Assembly (NCBI GenBank): GCA_963789075.1
Contig: CAWBJQ010000012.1
Location: 23,306 to 87,305, forward strand
Direction: 5' to 3'
DNA length: 64,000 bases
Source: an uncultured Acidobacteriota bacterium
Lineage (GTDB): Bacteria; Acidobacteriota; Vicinamibacteria; Vicinamibacterales; CAVVIG01
Each line of letters starts with the position of its first letter. The first letter of the stretch is position 1. Below the pieces are notes generated by a model. It was given only the letters and a program-made list of their open reading frames with translations, made no database searches and was not told the DNA's origin. The translations under genes were made by a program, and so were the position numbers. Positions 16,387-25,942 of the stretch are shown here, piece by piece.

Positions 16387-19155
16387 ATGACTCACTTCAG
16401 CCCTCGAATGTGTGTTGTCCTCATCTCGACGCTCGCCGTGCTCCTCCCCTCTCCCGCGCTGGCGCAAACGCAAACCGGCACCATCACCGGCGTCGCCACT
16501 GACGAGCAGGCTGCCGTGCTGCCGGGTGTCAATGTGACACTCGAGAGTCCGGCCATCATCCGGTCGCAAACCACGGTGACGAACGAACGCGGCGTCTACA
16601 GCTTCATCGCGTTGCCGCCGGGCGTGTACAACTTGAAGTTCAATCTTCAAGGGTTCGGATCCGTCGAGCGCCACGATATCCGGGTCAACGTCGCCGTCGT
16701 CAGCACGGTCGATCAGGTTATGAAGCTGGCCGCCGTCAGCGAGACCATTCAGGTGATGGGCGAATCGCCGGCGGTCGACGTCAAGAGCACGAGCAAAGGC
16801 ACGAACTTCGACAGCTCGCTGCTCACCTCGATCCCTCAGGCGCGCGAAATCTGGTCCACCGTCGAGCAGGTCCCTGGATCGACCGAGAGCGGCTTCAACG
16901 TGGGGGGCGCGGGCAGCGCGCAACAGAGCGGGATGGCCGTGCACGGGTCGGCGGCCGGCCAGCAGGAGTACGCCGTGAACGGCCTCAAGCTGAACTGGCC
17001 CGGCGGCAACGGCGGGGCCACGGCGTTCTATTTCGACCAGGACAGCTTCGCCGAGATCAACGTGATGACCAACGGCGCGCCGGCAGAGGTCGGCACGGGC
17101 GGTGTCTACATGAATACCGTCACCAAGTCGGGCGGCAACGAATTCAGGGGCGGGACCAGCGCTTACTGGGAGGACTCGTCGTTCCAAGGCGACAACGTCT
17201 CGGAGGAGTTGCGCGCACAGGGCGTCACGAAAGGAAACCCGATCAACTACATCTACGACGTCAACGGCAACGTCGGTGGACCGCTCAAACGCGACAAAGC
17301 CTGGTTCTTCTCCTCGTTCCGGCGGTTCGACATCAGCACGCAGGTGTTGGGCATTACGCGTCCGGATGGCTCGCCCGCGCCCGACCTGAACCATCAGTCC
17401 AACTTCGTCGGCAAGGTGACGATGCAGCTGAACGACAAGAACAAGATCAGCGGCGAGTTCAACTTCAACTACCAGAACCGCTTTTTCCGCCGCCCAACGA
17501 CCGACCTGGTCGAGGAAAAGGCATCGTGGCGCCAGATCGAACCGGCCTACATCGCACAGGGTCAGTGGACGTCTCTCCTGACGCCGAAGCTGTTCCTCGA
17601 CGCGCGCTACGGATTTCTCCACCTGATCTTTCCGCTGCACTACCAGCCAGAGGTCGGAGCCAACGACTTCGCGCGGCAGGACATCTTCCGCCACACGCTC
17701 ACTGACGCCGCAACGTACGACTACGAAAACCTGGCGACGCGTCACCAGGCGAACATCTCGGCGTCGTACTTCGTCAATTCCCACACGGTCAAGACCGGCT
17801 TCGAATATGGCCGGGCGTTCAACCAGAACCAGTACGCGGCCAACGGCAACTACGTGCTGCGGTACTTCGACGGCGCGCCGTTGGAAGTCCAGACTTACAA
17901 CACCCCCATCACAGGGAAGAACTACATCGACACCATCGCGCTGTACGCGCAGGACTCGTGGGTGATCAACCGGCGTCTCACCCTCAACGTCGGTGGACGC
18001 TTCGAGCGGCTCGTCGGTTCTGCGCCCCCGCAGTCGCGGCCGACCAACGACTTCTTCCCGGCCCAGACGTTCGGTCAGCTTGACAACGTCCCGAACTGGA
18101 ACAACGGATTGTGGCGGGTGGGCGCCTCCTACGACGTGAACGGCGACGGCAAGACCGCCGTCAAAGCGTTCTACGGCCGGTTCATGGTGCAGGAAGGCAC
18201 GCGACTGGTGCAACAGGTCAATCCCAACGACTTGGGAGGCGACTTCCGGAGCTGGACCGACACCAACGCCGACGGGATCGCGCAGTTGAATGAGCTCGGC
18301 TCGCCGACGCGCCCGTACGGCGGGCGGGTGAACACGATCGATCCGAGCCTCAAACAACCCTACTCGGACGAGATCAATGTGGGCGTGGATCACGAGCTGC
18401 TGCGGAACCTCTCGGCCGGCGTCACGTACTACTACCGGCACAATGGCCGCCGCTTCAGCGGGATCAACGTGGCGGTCCCCCCGAGCGCGTACACGCCGAT
18501 CACCGTCGCCGGGGGCGACGGCCAGCCGGTGACGGTCTACAACCAGGACGTGTCCACTCTCGCTCTGGCGCAAAGAGTCATCACCAATATCGACGGCCTG
18601 GAGGACACCTACCACGGCGTCGAGTTCACCGCGACCAAGCGGATGGCCGACCGGTGGCAGCTGATCGGCGGGTTCACGATCGGCCGCGACAAGGGCGTCT
18701 TCGACAACGGTCTGAACGATGACTTCAACAACCCGAACGCGAACCTCAATCGCCAGAACGGGTACATCGGGATGGACAGCACCTACGTGGCCAAATTGAT
18801 TGGCACGTACGTCTTTCCGCGCGATGTCACGTTCAGCACGAATTTCCGCTATTTCACCGGTCAGCCCGTTCAAAAGCTCAACACGGTCGTAGGTCTGAAT
18901 CAGGGGACCGTGAGCGTGCTGGCCGAGCCGGTCGGCACGACGAGGCTGGACAACGTCGCGTTGTGGGACGCGAGAGCTTCGAAGATCTTCCGGTTCGGCC
19001 AAGGCCGGGAGATCGAGGCGATGGTGGATGTGTTCAATCTCCTGAATCAGGACGCCAAGACGACCATCAACAACAACGTCGGGCCGCTGTTCGGGAGTCC
19101 CATTGCGATCCTCGCGCCGCGGGTCGCACGACTCGGCGTCCGTTTGGCATTCTGA
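16387..19155 (+). CDS. TonB-dependent receptor with carboxypeptidase-regulatory-like N-domain, intact, 922 aa
   Basis: Signal peptide then GTITGVATDEQAAVLPGVNVTLES..NERGVYSFIALPPGVYNLKFNLQGFG, with a beta-barrel-like C-terminus ...RVARLGVRLAF. Confidence 0.85.
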   Translation: MTHFSPRMCVVLISTLAVLLPSPALAQTQTGTITGVATDEQAAVLPGVNVTLESPAIIRSQTTVTNERGVYSFIALPPGVYNLKFNLQGFGSVERHDIRVNVAVVSTVDQVMKLAAVSETIQVMGESPAVDVKSTSKGTNFDSSLLTSIPQAREIWSTVEQVPGSTESGFNVGGAGSAQQSGMAVHGSAAGQQEYAVNGLKLNWPGGNGGATAFYFDQDSFAEINVMTNGAPAEVGTGGVYMNTVTKSGGNEFRGGTSAYWEDSSFQGDNVSEELRAQGVTKGNPINYIYDVNGNVGGPLKRDKAWFFSSFRRFDISTQVLGITRPDGSPAPDLNHQSNFVGKVTMQLNDKNKISGEFNFNYQNRFFRRPTTDLVEEKASWRQIEPAYIAQGQWTSLLTPKLFLDARYGFLHLIFPLHYQPEVGANDFARQDIFRHTLTDAATYDYENLATRHQANISASYFVNSHTVKTGFEYGRAFNQNQYAANGNYVLRYFDGAPLEVQTYNTPITGKNYIDTIALYAQDSWVINRRLTLNVGGRFERLVGSAPPQSRPTNDFFPAQTFGQLDNVPNWNNGLWRVGASYDVNGDGKTAVKAFYGRFMVQEGTRLVQQVNPNDLGGDFRSWTDTNADGIAQLNELGSPTRPYGGRVNTIDPSLKQPYSDEINVGVDHELLRNLSAGVTYYYRHNGRRFSGINVAVPPSAYTPITVAGGDGQPVTVYNQDVSTLALAQRVITNIDGLEDTYHGVEFTATKRMADRWQLIGGFTIGRDKGVFDNGLNDDFNNPNANLNRQNGYIGMDSTYVAKLIGTYVFPRDVTFSTNFRYFTGQPVQKLNTVVGLNQGTVSVLAEPVGTTRLDNVALWDARASKIFRFGQGREIEAMVDVFNLLNQDAKTTINNNVGPLFGSPIAILAPRVARLGVRLAF

Positions 19156-19371
19156 GCAACGGCGGCAACGCCCGAAGCGCCCGTTTCACGAAGATCCGGG
19201 CGCTCTCGGGCGCAATTGGACGCCGCCCATGGCAAGCGGCGCTCGCGGACGTTCCTCGAGCCCACAGCTCGACGTGATACCCTCCTCACAACGGTCCGTT
19301 CGACTCGAGCGGCCGGGCTGAAGCTCTCCCCGAAACATCACAGTCGCAGGACTTTTCATCGTGGATCGCCG

Positions 19372-20094
19372 ATGACTTCACGGATCGGTCTGGCCTTCGT
19401 CCTCGTGTGTTCGACAGCGCTGGCTGCGCAACAGCTGCTGCCGGTCCATGAGACAGGCATCAAGTACATGCGTGATAGCGAGGAGTATGCCGCGCTCACC
19501 CGCCAGACGTATCGTCTCGCCGGCGACGCCGTGACGCGCGCGGCGGCCGGCAAGGCGCCGGCGGCGTGGAGCGTGGTCCTCGACATCGACGAGACGGCCC
19601 TCGACAATTCGACGTATCAACTCGAACGCGCGGCGTATGGACTGCCGTTCGAGAGCGCGTCTTGGAGCGCGTGGATCGCCCGGCGCGGGGCGGCAGCGGT
19701 CCCGGGCTCAGTGACGTTCGTGACGCTCGTGCGTCAAGCCGCCGGTCACGTCGCGTGGATCACGAACCGCGACGCCTCGCTCATGGACGCCACACGCGAC
19801 AATCTGCGCCGGGTCGGTCTCTGGGATGATCGCGACCGCCTCTGTGGCCAGAACACACCGACACACACGAAGGGACAGCGGCGTCATGAGGTCGTCACGG
19901 GCGCGGGCGATTGTTCGTGGCCTGGTGTGCCGATGCGCGTGCTGGCGTTCATCGGCGACCAGCTCGGAGATTTTCCGGACGCGTCGGAACACATTCCGGA
20001 CACAGGGAGCGACGCGGCCTTTGGACGCACGTGTTTTCTGCTCCCGAACTCGATGTACGGCAGCTGGACGACTCAGGTGACACGCATCCCCTGA
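19372..20094 (+). CDS. HAD-superfamily class B acid phosphatase / e(P4)-type 5-nucleotidase lipoprotein family
   Basis: Signal peptide MTSRIGLAFVLVCSTALAAQ, then VVLDIDETALDNSTYQ, ..AFIGDQLGDF. Confidence 0.65.
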   Translation: MTSRIGLAFVLVCSTALAAQQLLPVHETGIKYMRDSEEYAALTRQTYRLAGDAVTRAAAGKAPAAWSVVLDIDETALDNSTYQLERAAYGLPFESASWSAWIARRGAAAVPGSVTFVTLVRQAAGHVAWITNRDASLMDATRDNLRRVGLWDDRDRLCGQNTPTHTKGQRRHEVVTGAGDCSWPGVPMRVLAFIGDQLGDFPDASEHIPDTGSDAAFGRTCFLLPNSMYGSWTTQVTRIP

Positions 20095-20261
20095 TGCGCC
20101 CGATCGCCCTTAGAGCAGGTTGCAAAATTGGCGAGCTGATTTCGCAACGGTGTTTCGAGCCGACAGCAGCTCGAATATGCATCGGGAAGCCGCGAAACCG
20201 TCCTCAGTCGGCATCAGCGACTTAGGCTGTGCGCACATTCTGGAAGGCCATTAGCACACTC

Positions 20262-21130
20262 TTAGTGAACAGCGGCGGCCCCGATGCTGCCTTCAACCCC
20301 TGACCAGGTCCACGCCTGCCAGATGATGACCAAGGTGCAAACAGTTTCGATCGTCGCGAAGAACAAGTACTCAGGAAAAGCGGGCGGCCTGCCCCATCCG
20401 GCCAGAGGCGGAACGAAGGTCAGGAAACCGTTTACAAGGGTCAAAATGCCACCCGCGATGATATTCGCCAGCCGGTTCGCTCTAAACGGAAGCAGTCGAC
20501 ACGCCAGAATCATGGCGATGGGTATTTCCATCAAGACCGCTGAACCCATCAGAGCCCATTGGGGGAGAGGCTCGAATGAATTTCGCGGCCAGCAATAGCG
20601 AACAGGGCAACGACGTCCGCATACAGGTAGTTCAATAACGCGAAGATCCACAGTAGAGACAACCGCTCCTTTGTGTCAGGCATGTCAACCTCCCTCCGGA
20701 ATAGTTCCGGTCCCGCCGCGCCCCGTCGCAGACTCCACAGTCCGCGCGCCGAAAGGATGAAGGTGAAGCCCCCGAGCCCGCCGAGCGCCCAGAGTGTCCA
20801 GACGAAGAAGAAGCCGCCGGTGGACCTGGCGATCTCGCCGTAGTGCGCCCCCCTCATGTGGATGACGGGCATGCCTGCCGCGAACAACCCGACGAGCAGC
20901 ATGATGACGTGCCCCGATCGCCGTTCGGCGAGCACGAGCGTCCCGTACAGGAAGACCACGAGGACGAGCAGCGCGGTGTTTGAGGGCTCGGCCTTCGATA
21001 TCCCGCGGACGATGTCGTCCGTCACGTGAAGCGTCAGCAAGAGGATCGAAAGCAGAGACGTGACGACCAAGGTTGCGTTGTGTCTGATCATGCGCGCCAA
21101 TAGAGTGGCGGCACGCGTGCGCTCGAACAA
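20262..21130 (-). CDS. Polytopic membrane protein with two similar 4-TM halves; one frameshift near 20640
   Basis: ORFs 20549..21130 and 20262..20651 join. The ATG for MIRHNATLVV is at 21091; the track begins at TTG 21130. Confidence 0.5.
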
Positions 21131-21172
21131 CCCGCTTGCGACGAAGAGCGGATTGGCGCGGACGAACGGCGG
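21092..21172 (-). promoter_or_regulatory. Copy A of a conserved roughly 90-nt element, in the 81-nt intergenic gap between the LytTR gene stop and the membrane-gene start
   Basis: Blocks gtccgcgccaatccgctcttcgtcgcaagcgg and tattggcgcgcat are shared with 23161..23260. Confidence 0.5.
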
Positions 21173-21964
21173 CTACATCTGACGAAACAGATGCAGGTAG
21201 TTGCGGCTCACCGGCAGAACGTCATCTCGACCCTTGACGTGAATCTCGGCCGTTTCGTTGTCATGCCGCTTGACATGGCTGATCGCGCGCAGATTCACGA
21301 CGACCGACCGATGGACTTGCGCGAATTGTTCCGCATCAAGCTGCTCGAGCAGCTCCTTGAGCGGCGTCCGCACCACCGCCTCGGCCGGTCTCCCTCCATC
21401 GCGCCAGGCGACGATGGTGTACTTCGCGTCGGAGCGAAGGTAATCGACGTCATTGATCGCGATGAGGCGCACGGTATTCCCCGCTTGCGCGCGAATCCAT
21501 CGCAGCGCCTCGCTCTTGCCGCCGCCGCTCTGCAGCTTCGCGAGCTGCTCGCTCAGTTGCTGCAACAGCTGCTCGGTGTTGATCGCCGGCCTCGACGACC
21601 GCACACGCTCTTTGAGACGGCTCACGGTTTCCGCGAGCCGCGCCTGTTCGACCGGCTTCAGCAGGTAGTCGAGTGCGCCCTGCGCGAAGGCCTGTACCGC
21701 GTAGTGATCGTACGCGGTCACGAACACGAGATGCGCGCGCCGGCCGATGTGGTTCGCGGCATCGACACCGGAGAGGCCCGGCATGTGGACGTCGAGGAAA
21801 CAGATGTCGGGATGACGCTCGTCGAACAACCGAACCGCCTCCCGCCCGTTCCGCGCCTCGGCGACAATCTCGAGCTCGGGCCACACGGTCGCAAGCTGGC
21901 GCCGCAGCGCGTCGCGCAGCAGCGGTTCATCGTCCGCGATCAACGCTGTCGCGTCGGTATTCAT
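21173..21964 (-). CDS. LytTR-family response regulator (receiver plus LytTR DNA-binding domain), intact
   Basis: MNTDATALIADDEPLLRDALRR..ICFLDVHMPGLSG..LVFVTAYDHYAVQAF..DYLLKP..VVNLRAISHV. Confidence 0.85.
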   Translation of the reverse strand: MNTDATALIADDEPLLRDALRRQLATVWPELEIVAEARNGREAVRLFDERHPDICFLDVHMPGLSGVDAANHIGRRAHLVFVTAYDHYAVQAFAQGALDYLLKPVEQARLAETVSRLKERVRSSRPAINTEQLLQQLSEQLAKLQSGGGKSEALRWIRAQAGNTVRLIAINDVDYLRSDAKYTIVAWRDGGRPAEAVVRTPLKELLEQLDAEQFAQVHRSVVVNLRAISHVKRHDNETAEIHVKGRDDVLPVSRNYLHLFRQM

Positions 21965-23031
21965 GTGTGTGCCGGCATATCGACTTCGACGGCGACGCCG
22001 CGGGAGGCGCCGGACATCAGGCGCAGTTGCGCTGCGTCGCCGAAGCTCAGCTGCAGCCGCTCGCGCAGAGTCGTGAGCCCGGTCCCGAGACCGCTCGCCG
22101 ATTGATGAAGTCCGGCGCCCGTGTCGGTGACGCGGACCACACATCGCTCACCACGCCGTTCGATGTCGATGTCGATCCGGCCTCCTTCTTCGCTGGGGTC
22201 GATCCCGTGTCGGACGGCATTCTCAACCAGCGTCAACAGGGTGGTCGGAGGACAGCGGATCTTCAACGCCGACGGGTCGACGTTCATCGCGTACTGGAGG
22301 CGATCGGGCATGCGCATCTGCATCAGCTCGAGATATGGTCGAACGAGCTGCAGCTCGCGCTCGATCGTTGCGGCGGACTCGTGGAGCAGCGGCACCGCCG
22401 CGCGCAGGTACGCGGTGAGGCTCCGCAGCACGACCGACGCATGCGGCGAGCCCGCATCGACGAGCGCCTGCACGTTCGCGAGTGTGTTGAAGAGGAAATG
22501 CGGCGCGACTTGCGCCTGCAGCAGATGCAATCGCGCGTCGAGCGCCTGACGTTCGAGCTCACTGCGCTCGAGCGCGAACGAGAGGTTCTGATCGCGAGCG
22601 AAGGCTTCCTTCTGCCGAACGACCGCCGCGAGCACCGTCCACGGCGCGAGCAGAAGGCCGATGAACGTCAGGTGCGTCCATCCGTCCATGCGGCTGGGAT
22701 CCTCCCAGAACGGCGGCGCACCGCGCCGAGTGGACAGAATGTAGATCAGCAACGTCGTCACCGGCATGAAGACGCCGACGGCAACGACTTGAAGCGCCCA
22801 TCGCTGCAGCCAGCGCGGCAGCCTCCGAGGCCACACTTCGAAGAGAGCGAACGCAGTCGTCGCGGACAATCCGATGATGATGGTGCGGAGGAAGAGTGAG
22901 GATGGAGAAGTTGTCCATCCGTGCATCAAGAGGAGCCCGACGCCGATCGACATGGTCAGCGCAACGGCAACGCGCCGCGACATCTTCGCAATCATGCCGG
23001 CCGGTCTCGCGGCCGTCTCCAGTTCGGACAT
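21961..23031 (-). CDS. LytS-type sensor histidine kinase, intact
   Basis: TM-rich N-terminus, then QVAPHFLFNTLANVQALV (H-box), LVENAVRHGIDP, VTDTGAGL (HATPase_c). Confidence 0.8.
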   Translation of the reverse strand: MSELETAARPAGMIAKMSRRVAVALTMSIGVGLLLMHGWTTSPSSLFLRTIIIGLSATTAFALFEVWPRRLPRWLQRWALQVVAVGVFMPVTTLLIYILSTRRGAPPFWEDPSRMDGWTHLTFIGLLLAPWTVLAAVVRQKEAFARDQNLSFALERSELERQALDARLHLLQAQVAPHFLFNTLANVQALVDAGSPHASVVLRSLTAYLRAAVPLLHESAATIERELQLVRPYLELMQMRMPDRLQYAMNVDPSALKIRCPPTTLLTLVENAVRHGIDPSEEGGRIDIDIERRGERCVVRVTDTGAGLHQSASGLGTGLTTLRERLQLSFGDAAQLRLMSGASRGVAVEVDMPAHT

Positions 23032-23160
23032 GACGTGAGAATACCTGCTTGTGGGCGACCGGAGTGCGTTTCCAGCGATCGAGCCTGAGTGTCAGGTACA
23101 CCGGTCTAGCGACGATCGACCATCCGACGTGCAGCGCCAGCGACGATGGGCGGTCTCTCG

Positions 23161-23260
23161 ATATGCGCGCCAATATCACGCCGCGCCGCCCTGAGAACAA
23201 TCGGATTGCGACGAAGTGTGGATTCGCGCGGACGATGGAGACCGCGAACAGCAGCGGTTC
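23161..23260 (-). promoter_or_regulatory. Copy B of the conserved element, upstream of the histidine-kinase gene
   Basis: About 85% identity to 21092..21172, including atgcgcgccaata and ttgcgacgaag. Confidence 0.5.
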
Positions 23261-23289
23261 GCATCCGGTCAGGGTTTTGTTACAGGCTC

Positions 23290-25942
23290 TTAGGGTGAAG
23301 CCGGCCCTCTGACCACCTGAACGAAGCCGTCCGGGCGAATCCACTTCGCGAACGCCGCCCGCACTTCGTCCGCCGTCATCGAAAAGTAGCGCTTCGCCGA
23401 TCGTGCCGGTTCGTCGAGCGGCAAGCCGATCTGCGCCCTGCCGAGCAGCCCTCCGGCGACGGCCTCCTCGCTCGATTCGCGAAGCGGCATCTGACGCAGC
23501 AGCAGCGCCTTGGCCTGGTGGAGCTCCTGTGCGGTCACGTTGGTCGTTTGCATCGACCGCAGGTCGCGCGCGATCAGGTCGCGCGCCTTCGAGACATTCG
23601 GCGGGTCGCATCCGTAGCTGACGCTATAGACGCTTCGCGTCCTGTCCGACGTGAGATTGTCGTCGACCGTGTAGACAAGCCCCGCTTCCTGACGCAGATC
23701 GTGATAGAGCCGGGTCGCGTAGAAGCCGCCGCCCAGCACGTGATTGCCCAGCTGCAGCGCGTAGTAGTCGGGATCGAAGCGCGTGAGGCCGACTTCGTGC
23801 GCGAGCACCACTGACGCCTGCACCGCGCTCGGATCGGGCACGGCGACTTCGGCGGCGGCGTTCGCCGGCACCGCGGCAGATCGAGCAGCGGCTTGGGCGC
23901 GGATGCCTTCCAGCCGCCAAACCATTTCGTGATGGTCGCCTTGGCGTCCTCTGGCGTGACGTCGCCGATCACGACGATCGTCGTGAGATCGGGCCGGAAC
24001 GTCTCGGCGTGATACCGCTTGACATCGTCGAGCGTGAGCACGGAGACGGTCTCCGGGGTCGCCTCCCGCAATCCGGGATCATTGGCCGGCAGCAAGCCCG
24101 GTGCGAAGCGCGCGATCCGCCCGGTAGCCGGGACTCTTCATCTCCCCGTCGACGAACTCGGCCGTCTGCTGTTTGACCACCTCGAACGCCTCGGCGGGAA
24201 GGGCGGGCTGCAGCAGGTTGTCGGCGAGCAGCTCGACGCCGCGCGAAAAATCCGCCTTCAGGACTTTCAGCGAGAAGTCATAGCCCGCGGTCTCGTTCGC
24301 GGCGATGTCGTCGAGCGCCTTCTGGAACGCCAGGCGATCGAGCGTCTTCGTGCCGTAGGAAAAGAGCTCGTCGAGGACGTCGGCGACGCCGTCCTTACCC
24401 GCGGGTGTCTGCAGGCGCGGCTCGTGCCGGACGTTGCCGAGCACCGTGATCGTGGGACTCGTTTTCTCGGTCTTGACGATCAGGCGAATGCCGTTCGGCA
24501 GCGTCGCGTCGGTCCAGGTCGGCGTCGACTGCGGAATCTGCAGCGAGGACAACGCCGATTCCGCCCAGGGCGGCAGCGTGACCGGTTTGGTCGGCGCGGA
24601 CGTCAGTTGTTCGCCGCCGCCGAATCCCTTCGATGACACCGGCTCGCCCGACGGCTTCGGCACCAGCGTCGCCGTGATCGAGTTGTCGGCAACCAGATAC
24701 TGTTTGGCGACGCGGTTCACGTCCGCGACGGTCACGCGTCGGATGGCTTCGACGTCTTCGTCCGGCGATTGACGACCCTCGGCGGCCAGCGCCTGCGACC
24801 AGGTGGCGGCCAGGTCCGGAATCGAGTTGCGCTGGAACTCGGCCGAGGCGATCTCGCTCCGCTTCGCGGCGTCGACCAGTTCGAGCGGCAGCCCCTTTTG
24901 CGCGTATGCCGACACGATGGCCGTCATGCTCGCGACGACCGCGGAGGGTTCAGTCGCGGCCGGCAGCACGCCAACCGCGAACCCGACGCTGGCCTTCGGA
25001 TACGTTTCGGCCAGCTCGAACTGCGTTTCGAGCGCCTTGCCCGCCGGCACGAGCGCGTAGAGATCGCCGCGCTGGCTCGCCAGGACGTCGGCCAGAACCC
25101 GCGCGGCGGCGAAGTCGGCGCTGTCGGTGCCCGGCATGCGATACGCGATGAACGCCAAGCGTGTACGGCAGGTTGCTGTCGAGCGTGAAGGTCTCCGGCT
25201 TCACGGGCTGCAGCGTCACGTCCGGGCGCGCCGGCAGCGGACGGCGTTCGATGCTTCCGTACAGCTCTTTGACGCGCTTCAGCACAGCGGCGGGATCGAC
25301 ATCGCCGGCCACGACGAGGATGGCGTTGTTCGGCGCGTACCAGTTCTTGTAGAACGTCTTGAGCATCGGGCCCGTCGTCGCCTCGAACGATTCGCGCGTG
25401 CCCAGCGCATCGTGCGCGTACGGCGTGCCGGAAAACAGGTCTTCGTTCAGGCGCGTCAGGAACTTGTAGGTCGGCTCCGACAGATCGCGCGCGACTTCCT
25501 GCTCGATCGCGCCTTTCTCCTGTTCCCACTCGGTCTGCGCATCGTCGACATCCTGCATGCACGCGGCGTCGAGGCGAAGCGCGACGTCGAGGTCGGCGGC
25601 CGGCACCGTCGTGAAGTACTGCGTGATGTTCTGCTGCGTGTCGGCGTTGCCGAAGCCGCCAAGCTGCGCGAAGATCGCGGCGGTCTGATCGGCCGATACG
25701 CCCGCGCACCCTCGGAACGCCATGTGCTCCTGCGCGTGCGCCATCCCCGGGAAGCCGGCCGGCGTCTCGTTCGCGCCGACGAGATAGTTGCTCTGGACCG
25801 TCACGACCGGGGCCAGCCGATCGCGAATGATCACGACTCGGAGACCGTTATCGAGCGTCGCACGGACGACGTCTGGCTCCGCGATCGCGGTTTGACGAGC
25901 GCTCGGCGCCGAGGGCGGCAACACGAGCAGTAAGGAAGGCAA
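23290..25942 (-). CDS. Secreted M16-family (pitrilysin-like) zinc peptidase, about 880 aa; at least 3 frameshifts
   Basis: The HxxEH zinc motif GMAHAQEHMAFRG sits in ORF 24950..25942. Downstream fragments lie in ORFs 24079..25158, 23574..24095 and 23290..23925. Signal peptide LLLVLPPSAPSARQ. Confidence 0.75.

Follow-up and report, generated by a model that had tools for sequence, protein, structure and literature searches.

AgrA, the response regulator of the agr system of Staphylococcus aureus, recognizes imperfect 9-bp direct repeats that lie 12-13 bp apart upstream of the −35 element (PMC5600425). The agr promoters P2 and P3 place one copy of this site at the kinase-regulator operon, where it serves autoregulation, and another at the effector. 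AlgR of Pseudomonas aeruginosa, a receiver-LytTR protein, has a 9-bp consensus, CCGTTCGTC, derived from footprints and chromatin immunoprecipitation sequencing (ChIP-seq) (PMC4064291, PMC4787818). Here we describe a locus of an uncultured Acidobacteriota bacterium that can be compared with both. It lies in a stretch of 64,000 nucleotides (GenBank assembly GCA_963789075.1, contig CAWBJQ010000012.1, positions 23,306 to 87,305 of the forward strand), hereafter the window, and encodes a sensor histidine kinase, a LytTR-domain response regulator and, behind them, a small membrane protein whose gene we call memA. A repeated element occurs once between the regulator gene and memA (copy 1) and again upstream of the kinase gene (copy 2). 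Judging from its sequence and conservation, we consider it quite probable that both copies are one module, an operator for the adjacent LytTR regulator joined to an activator-dependent promoter, placed before the memA target and before the regulator's own operon. Such an arrangement is ordinary for the LytTR regulator class; here it is found in an uncharacterised soil-bacterial system.

The best-matching block of the two copies spans 41 nt at 85% identity (21125-21165 versus 23195-23235) and is the longest direct repeat in the 3.6-kb region. It is accompanied by an exact 13-nt match, ATGCGCGCCAATA on the plus strand, at 21090-21102 and 23163-23175, and the two blocks are separated by about 20 poorly conserved nucleotides whose length differs by 3 nt between the copies. 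The local alignment score is 60, compared with a mean of 18.4 (standard deviation 2.6, maximum 31) for 1000 dinucleotide shuffles, or z = 15.9. An earlier reading of this DNA, made from the sequence alone (the sequence-only reading), had put the identity at about 85%, a figure that holds for the 41-nt core and drops to about 77%, counting gaps, over the whole alignment of some 77 columns; similarly, of the upstream extent that it gave, 23161..23260, the part from 23161 to 23235 aligns well and the remainder does not. The minus-strand translation VRANP[L/H]FVA... that it had noticed is present in both copies and is a mere by-product of the DNA identity.

Within each copy lie two 9-bp direct repeats of the pattern NNNNTCGTC, with 9-mers ending in TCGTC and a 12-bp spacer between them (Table 1), so that the LytTR-type direct repeats for which the sequence-only reading had advised a search are found in both. 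The operator of copy 1 starts 3 nt past the regulator stop codon, and the distal 9-mer of copy 2, TCCATCGTC, is degenerate. The window contains three exact instances of TCGTC-N15-TTCGTC, and two of these are the operator copies. A position weight matrix (PWM) of 42 nt, built from about 40 sites in orthologous loci and with the consensus GCCGCCGTTCGTCCGCGCGAATCCGCCCTTCGTCGCAATCCG, shows peaks of information content on both repeats, the family consensus being CCGTTCGTC for the distal and CCCTTCGTC for the proximal repeat. When both strands of the window (128 kb) were scanned with this matrix, copy 1 scored 60.3 bits, copy 2 41.4 bits and the next best site 8.2 bits; the copy 2 site of the closest relative, L081 (related loci are designated by L numbers), scores 52 bits. 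A possible third half-site, in the last codons of the regulator and 21 nt ahead of the distal repeat, was considered as a requirement and rejected, many upstream copies being without that sequence.

One further sequence was noted near copy 2. On the plus strand, CGTCCGGGCGAATCCAC (23328-23344, within the 3'-terminal part of the M16 peptidase gene) is a 16/17 inverted match to the copy 2 core CGTCCGCGCGAATCCAC of the minus strand, 93 nt away from copy 2 and followed by a TTCG that is 2 nt nearer than its operator counterpart. L081, whose neighbouring gene differs, lacks this sequence, which is probably a chance match in GC-rich DNA.

The resemblance to AgrA sites is one of architecture: in both cases two imperfect 9-bp direct repeats with a spacing of 12-13 bp stand just upstream of a −35 element (a putative one here), and in both cases one copy is found at the kinase-regulator operon and another at an effector. 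In contrast, the AgrA repeat, [TA][AC][CA]GTTN[AG][TG], is unrelated in sequence to NNNNTCGTC, the promoters of the window are co-directional and 2 kb apart while P2 and P3 are divergent and adjacent, and the kinase is of the PF06580 type with four transmembrane (TM) segments rather than an AgrC, with no peptide signal genes and with small membrane proteins as targets. With AlgR the resemblance is one of sequence, the AlgR core recurring unchanged as the distal repeat of copy 1 and as the family consensus, and of protein type, both regulators being receiver-LytTR proteins. AlgR sites, however, are usually single 9-mers, variable and often distant, and not direct repeats spaced by 12 bp (PMC4064291). 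The proximal consensus of the present family, CCCTTCGTC, also lacks the CCGT of AlgR sites, and the downstream context differs, being memA/DUF6326 here; the downstream genes examined matched only these membrane-protein families. AlgZ (FimS), the AlgR partner, is likewise a membrane kinase of the PF06580 type, of about 350 aa. Over its full length the regulator is 33% identical to an approximate AlgR sequence, and 33% identity is typical between different LytTR regulators. By analogy, then, the regulator may work as the AgrA and AlgR systems do, and orthology to AlgR is not claimed.

A LytTR-domain response regulator, which a LytTR-type operator presupposes, is encoded at the locus, and its start overlaps the kinase stop in ATGA. 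Hydropathy predicts four TM segments in the N-terminus of the kinase, and a Pfam scan (E <= 0.01) found only His_kinase and HATPase-type domains, with no further sensor domain detected. Kinase homologs number in the thousands, many of them 85-96% identical, the best 120 being 83-100% identical; one public contig of 92.9 kb encodes an identical protein. Among NCBIfam equivalogs the regulator matched BtsR best (157 bits, cutoff 246), followed by LytR (110 bits, cutoff 375), both below their cutoffs, while a search of PDB sequences returned receiver-domain matches only and nothing informative on the LytTR domain. BtsS/BtsR (YehU/YehT) and LytS/LytR share with the present system the PF06580 kinase core and a regulator that activates an adjacent or nearby membrane-protein gene, as we infer it does here, although their targets belong to families other than those found here. 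In the library searched, DUF4386, DUF6326 and their Pfam accessions returned no paper, DUF2306 and LytTR occurred together in a single one, on the comparative genomics of halotolerance, and no study of the system was found.

Conservation of the operator was followed in two samples. A scan of species-representative genomes yielded 80 loci with kinases 57-88% identical, mostly from soil metagenome-assembled genomes labelled Thermoanaerobaculia, Vicinamibacterales or Acidobacteriota, together with Longimicrobium, Eisenbacteria and Gammaproteobacteria (Dyella, Tahibacter, Rudaea). Counting as a site any PWM score of at least 20 bits, and as close loci those with kinases at least 74% identical, a site directly follows the regulator stop in 28 of the 31 testable close loci, and 12 of 33 close loci have one on the same strand no more than 1.5 kb upstream of the kinase. 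Across all 80 loci no site falls within the kinase or regulator coding sequence and a single one lies on the opposite strand; fewer sites are found as kinase identity falls. Past the regulator stop, 23 loci have their TCGTC cores spaced by 21 nt and 4 by 20 nt, and other spacings hardly occur. For the second sample, metagenome contigs were scanned for the strict motif; of the 80 obtained, some 70 are regulator-stop/operator/target junctions, the others being arranged as operator-DUF4386-kinase or operator-memA-kinase. The genes behind the module vary (memA, DUF4386, DUF2306 and an unclassified 138-aa family), and a constant site in constant orientation, at a fixed place beside one regulator family and followed by variable genes, is the signature of a regulon operator. 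The sequence-only reading had left two explanations standing, an operator before both operon and target or a remnant of a tandem duplication, and had looked to orthologs without the upstream copy for a refutation of the first; many orthologs possess one, and the operator explanation gains support from the repeat substructure and from position and orientation conserved in dozens of orthologous loci.

Some members of these samples depart from the common layout. Two large metagenome contigs, of 1.3 Mb (L117 3696) and 1.66 Mb (L118 5059), have a perfect operator motif ahead of a divergent DUF4386 gene, and no kinase or regulator was found near the former in the 3.7 kb upstream and 7 kb downstream that were fetched, nor in 5 kb upstream of the latter; each site is a candidate distant member of the regulon. 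In L009 (5083-5124) and L110 the kinase and regulator genes are separated by an inserted gene for a 138-aa membrane protein without a Pfam match, and ahead of this gene stands a weak site resembling the operator (14 bits).

The operator is followed by sequences that resemble weak promoters. In an anchored alignment of 53 sites, GTTGTTCG is conserved past the proximal repeat and is followed by a −10-like block, at fixed offsets. In the window the putative −35, TTGTTC, lies 9 nt downstream of the proximal repeat with −10-like hexamers after it. The layout of copy 2, TTGnCC-17-GA(T/C)A(T/A)T, also stands before the intact DUF4386 genes of L082, L060 and L128, and A23164 is its predicted transcription start, a base that is also the first of an ATA, a mutated ATG. 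In copy 1 the −10-like hexamer may be either CACTCT (21102-21107, 17-nt spacer) or TCTATT (21099-21104, 20-nt spacer); automated assignment in memA-type promoters likewise gives −35/−10 spacings that vary with the hexamer accepted (15, 17 or 20 nt). Were TCTATT the −10 of copy 1, the 20-nt spacer would have its counterpart in the sub-optimal 20 bp of P3, and the 17 nt of copy 2 in P2. Downstream of the −10 of copy 1, the GC-rich GGCGCGC leads to the memA ATG (21089-21091), and a Shine-Dalgarno sequence is lacking. With the ATG at most 12 nt past the putative −10 and no ribosome-binding site, we predict a memA mRNA that is leaderless or almost leaderless. Some orthologs have instead a short leader (CATGTCGAGRA...) with a clear GGAGG.

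Another conserved element abuts the kinase gene. In the window it reads GGTATTCTC (23029-23045, minus strand) and contains TATTCT (23038-23043), with 6 nt between it and the kinase ATG. In almost every one of the 80 loci, from Acidobacteriota to Gammaproteobacteria, the sequence GG/ACTATCCTC (GG/AC-TATCCTC) is followed after 5-7 nt by the kinase ATG or GTG, and it is kept at the DNA level though the kinases are only about 60% identical. It looks like a −10 element placed for a leaderless kinase mRNA.

These observations suggest a mechanism in which the membrane kinase would sense a signal and phosphorylate the regulator, a dimer of which would then occupy both repeats just upstream of the weak −35 TTGTTC. 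Since the two sites are 21 bp apart, the repeats would lie on one face of the helix, and the bound dimer would aid RNA polymerase in starting transcription, in a presumed role of activation rather than repression. Copy 1 would drive memA and probably the DUF6326 gene behind it as well, while copy 2, 171 nt upstream of the kinase ATG, would provide positive autoregulation of the kinase-regulator operon through a transcript with a leader of about 133 nt. Formerly, copy 2 was the putative promoter of a DUF4386 membrane-protein gene ahead of the kinase, a place which that gene still keeps in relatives.

Evidence for this history comes from a comparison with L082, whose kinase is 92% identical and in which a DUF4386 gene comes after the upstream module and ends 24 nt before the kinase. 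The start of the gene, ATGTCGAGAAACGCCCGCATCG...GTACGTCGGATGGTTGATC in L082, corresponds to ATATCGAGAGACCGCCCATCG...GCACGTCGGATGGTCGATC in the window, and the two flanks of the copy 2 leader align to the start and the end of the DUF4386 gene; about 1.36 kb of this gene has therefore been deleted in the window. L081, whose kinase is 96% identical, carries the same DUF4386 remnant beside a different upstream neighbour, and independent internal deletions of DUF4386 are also found in L140, L154, L103 and L139. Ahead of the upstream copies of L082, L060, L081 and L128 stand about 21 nt matching the last codons and stop of the regulator, ...CTGTTCCGGCAGATGTAG, reading ...CTGTTCCGGCAGATG(T/C)AG before the operator; other upstream copies are without this regulator-end sequence. 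The sequence carried by these four indicates that the upstream copy arose by duplication of the regulator-end/operator/promoter/target junction. In the window the putative corresponding scar matches weakly and, relative to L081, is missing 11 nt, the old stop codon included, as if the non-functional part of the duplication scar were decaying while operator and promoter persist. Copy 2 belongs to the DUF4386-type promoter class and is not a recent copy of the memA junction of this genome. The junction duplication put forward by the sequence-only reading stands as the origin of the upstream copy and falls as an alternative to function: the second copy appears to be both an autoregulatory site and a relic of duplication and deletion.

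Several observations weigh against an operator-promoter module at both places. Two thirds of the close relatives are without the upstream copy, which shows that the system can do without autoregulation by this route. In copy 2 the distal repeat has degenerated, and AlgR binding is lost when the first two bases of the 9-mer are changed; copy 2 may therefore be weak or non-functional. TATTCT in the kinase-proximal element could drive the kinase operon independently of copy 2. A strict sigma-70 scan of 20900-23400 found no consensus promoter, a result compatible with, and indeed expected for, an activator-dependent promoter, and the −10 of copy 1 is ambiguous. A scan of the same interval for intrinsic terminators found none, and with no terminator between the regulator gene and memA, read-through could express memA without the module.

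The points that concern copy 2 are also those on which an alternative can be built, according to which copy 2 is a decaying scar with a dead promoter, the kinase operon is transcribed solely from the kinase-proximal element and copy 1 is still a working operator. The gene that copy 2 once served has been deleted and its start codon mutated to ATA, the half-site has degenerated and 11 nt have been lost relative to L081, its PWM score is 41 bits against 52-66 bits in relatives, most close orthologs do without an upstream copy, and different phyla share the TATCCT-like element at the kinase start. A dead remnant would, however, be expected to lose what copy 2 keeps, namely both TCGTC cores, the 12-nt spacer, TTGTTC-17-GATATT and GGCGCGC. 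Moreover, the deletion leaves the copy 2 promoter reading into the kinase with no terminator between them, and autoregulation would predate the deletion, since in relatives the same promoter already reads through DUF4386, kinase and regulator, with 24 nt between genes. On balance we regard the dead-promoter account of copy 2 as unlikely and continue to favour a working module in both places.

Far less credible is the proposal that the repeats are bound by some other, unlinked regulator or belong to a dispersed element of the REP or MITE kind. The contigs of L117 and L118, with the motif before a DUF4386 gene and no two-component system in the fetched locus (at least 3.7 kb upstream), could be taken in this sense, but orphan sites such as that of L117 are also what distant regulon members look like. 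Only two copies occur in 64 kb, the element is without terminal inverted repeats, the two-repeat layout is specific to LytTR regulators, and some 100 independent contigs have the site directly against the stop codon of this one regulator family, always oriented toward the downstream gene. The idea that the shared sequence acts as RNA, as a 3'-UTR or 5'-UTR (untranslated region) structure, an attenuator or a small ORF (open reading frame), can claim that copy 1 would lie on a regulator read-through transcript and that both copies share a reading frame, yet it is hardly tenable given no Rfam match at E <= 1 (19800-23700), minimum free energies no better than those of shuffles (z = -0.77 and -0.14) with the two copies folding differently, no terminator-like hairpin, conservation that takes the form of two 9-mers at a fixed 21-bp period and not of stems or codon periodicity, a copy 1 frame that opens directly after the regulator TAG with no start codon before TTG 21130, and memA orthologs that start at the ATG.

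The order of genes on the minus strand is a broken M16-type peptidase, the kinase, the response regulator, the 81-nt gap and the membrane ORF, and the succession of kinase, LytTR gene and membrane gene given by the sequence-only reading is borne out by the ORF layout and Pfam. Its single 8-TM, internally duplicated membrane-protein gene is instead two genes of unrelated families, memA and a DUF6326 gene, for which hhalign gives a probability of 0.3%, with no detectable homology, and which have their own stop and start codons in orthologs. The memA orthologs (n = 14) encode proteins of 125-144 aa with four TM segments, start at the ATG and end in ...SARGLWSLRRGQPR, while memA of the window, lacking a stop codon, continues in frame into the DUF6326 gene. 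Searched against Pfam and NCBIfam at E <= 0.01, memA has no significant match, apart from a sub-threshold one to BioY (E 0.009) with no qualifying stretch. The C-terminal ORF of DUF6326 (20262-20651) passes the gathering cutoff of 24 with 34.2 bits; an N-terminal piece in another frame (19 bits) covers model positions 11-35, and the frameshift lies at or beside a C5 run at 20561-20565, intact homologs being present in L008, L073 and L133.

Interrupted frames are also seen in the M16 peptidase genes (23290-25942, minus strand), which are broken across several frames, and in the DUF4386 gene of L082, which is in three frameshifted pieces. Together with the DUF6326 frameshift (20556-20565) and the loss of the memA stop (~20684-20720), these form a pattern suggesting that they may be homopolymer indels of long-read assembly rather than true pseudogenes. 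On the other side of the locus, the 922-aa ORF, which we take to resemble a protein of the TonB-dependent-receptor type, and the acid phosphatase gene have no operator site and both appear unrelated to the two-component system.

Table 1. Features of the two-component locus and its surroundings, with positions in the window.
Feature	Position	Strand	Details
922-aa ORF	16387-19155	+	Signal-peptide-like N-terminus; neighbouring gene
HAD IIIB acid phosphatase	19216-20094	+	Pfam 102 bits; neighbouring gene
DUF6326 (PF19851) membrane-protein gene	20262..20683	-	Own GGAGGGAGG ribosome-binding site 20689-20697; ATG 20681-20683
memA	20704..21091	-	Small 4-TM membrane protein (4 hydropathy segments)
Membrane ORF start ATG	21091	-	
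Gap between regulator stop and memA ATG	21092-21172		81 nt
Copy 1 promoter region (putative)	21089..21139	-	−35-like TTGTTC 21125-21130
Copy 1 operator	21140..21169	-	Distal CCGTTCGTC (21161-21169); 12-nt spacer cgcgccaatccg; proximal CTCTTCGTC (21140-21148)
Response regulator	21173..21964	-	263 aa; receiver (Response_reg, Pfam 80 bits) and LytTR DNA-binding domain (73 bits)
Sensor histidine kinase	21961..23031	-	356 aa; PF06580 His_kinase (LytS/YehU-type) and HATPase_c, Pfam 69 and 30 bits
Intergenic region, peptidase end (23290) to kinase			258 nt; minus-strand reading
DUF4386 3'-end remnant and kinase-proximal element	23029..23087	-	Aligns to L082 2946-3003
DUF4386 5' remnant	23107..23164	-	First ~18 codons, ATG to ATA; aligns to L082 1529-1586, local score 55
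Copy 2 promoter (putative)	23164..23209	-	TTGTTC 23195-23200; 17-nt spacer; GATATT 23172-23177; GGCGCGC; A23164
Copy 2 operator	23210..23239	-	Distal TCCATCGTC (23231-23239); 12-nt spacer cgcgcgaatcca; proximal CACTTCGTC (23210-23218)
Regulator 3'-end scar (putative, weak match)	23240..23256	-	gctgctgttcgcggtct versus gcatctgtttcgtcaga before copy 1

A broader picture, which we offer tentatively and would sooner doubt than adopt, is that of a portable cassette, in which the module and the last ~21 nt of the regulator gene would have been copied repeatedly before memA, DUF4386, DUF2306, DUF6326 and 138-aa genes, building as well as reshuffling the regulon of a widespread membrane-sensing system of soil Acidobacteriota that has apparently spread to Gemmatimonadota and Gammaproteobacteria, with an AlgR-type half-site in an AgrA-type tandem and with leaderless mRNAs for both target and kinase.

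In an otherwise textbook LytTR pattern, the locus shows cleanly, in a natural setting, how a regulatory site can be a duplication scar and, as predicted here, functional at the same time. It provides a concrete candidate operator for a two-component system met very commonly in soil metagenomes, and it ties four or five membrane-protein families of unknown function into one predicted regulon. For these families, the regulon link would narrow the search for a function to a stimulus that the kinase, which has no detected extracytoplasmic domain, perceives inside the membrane.

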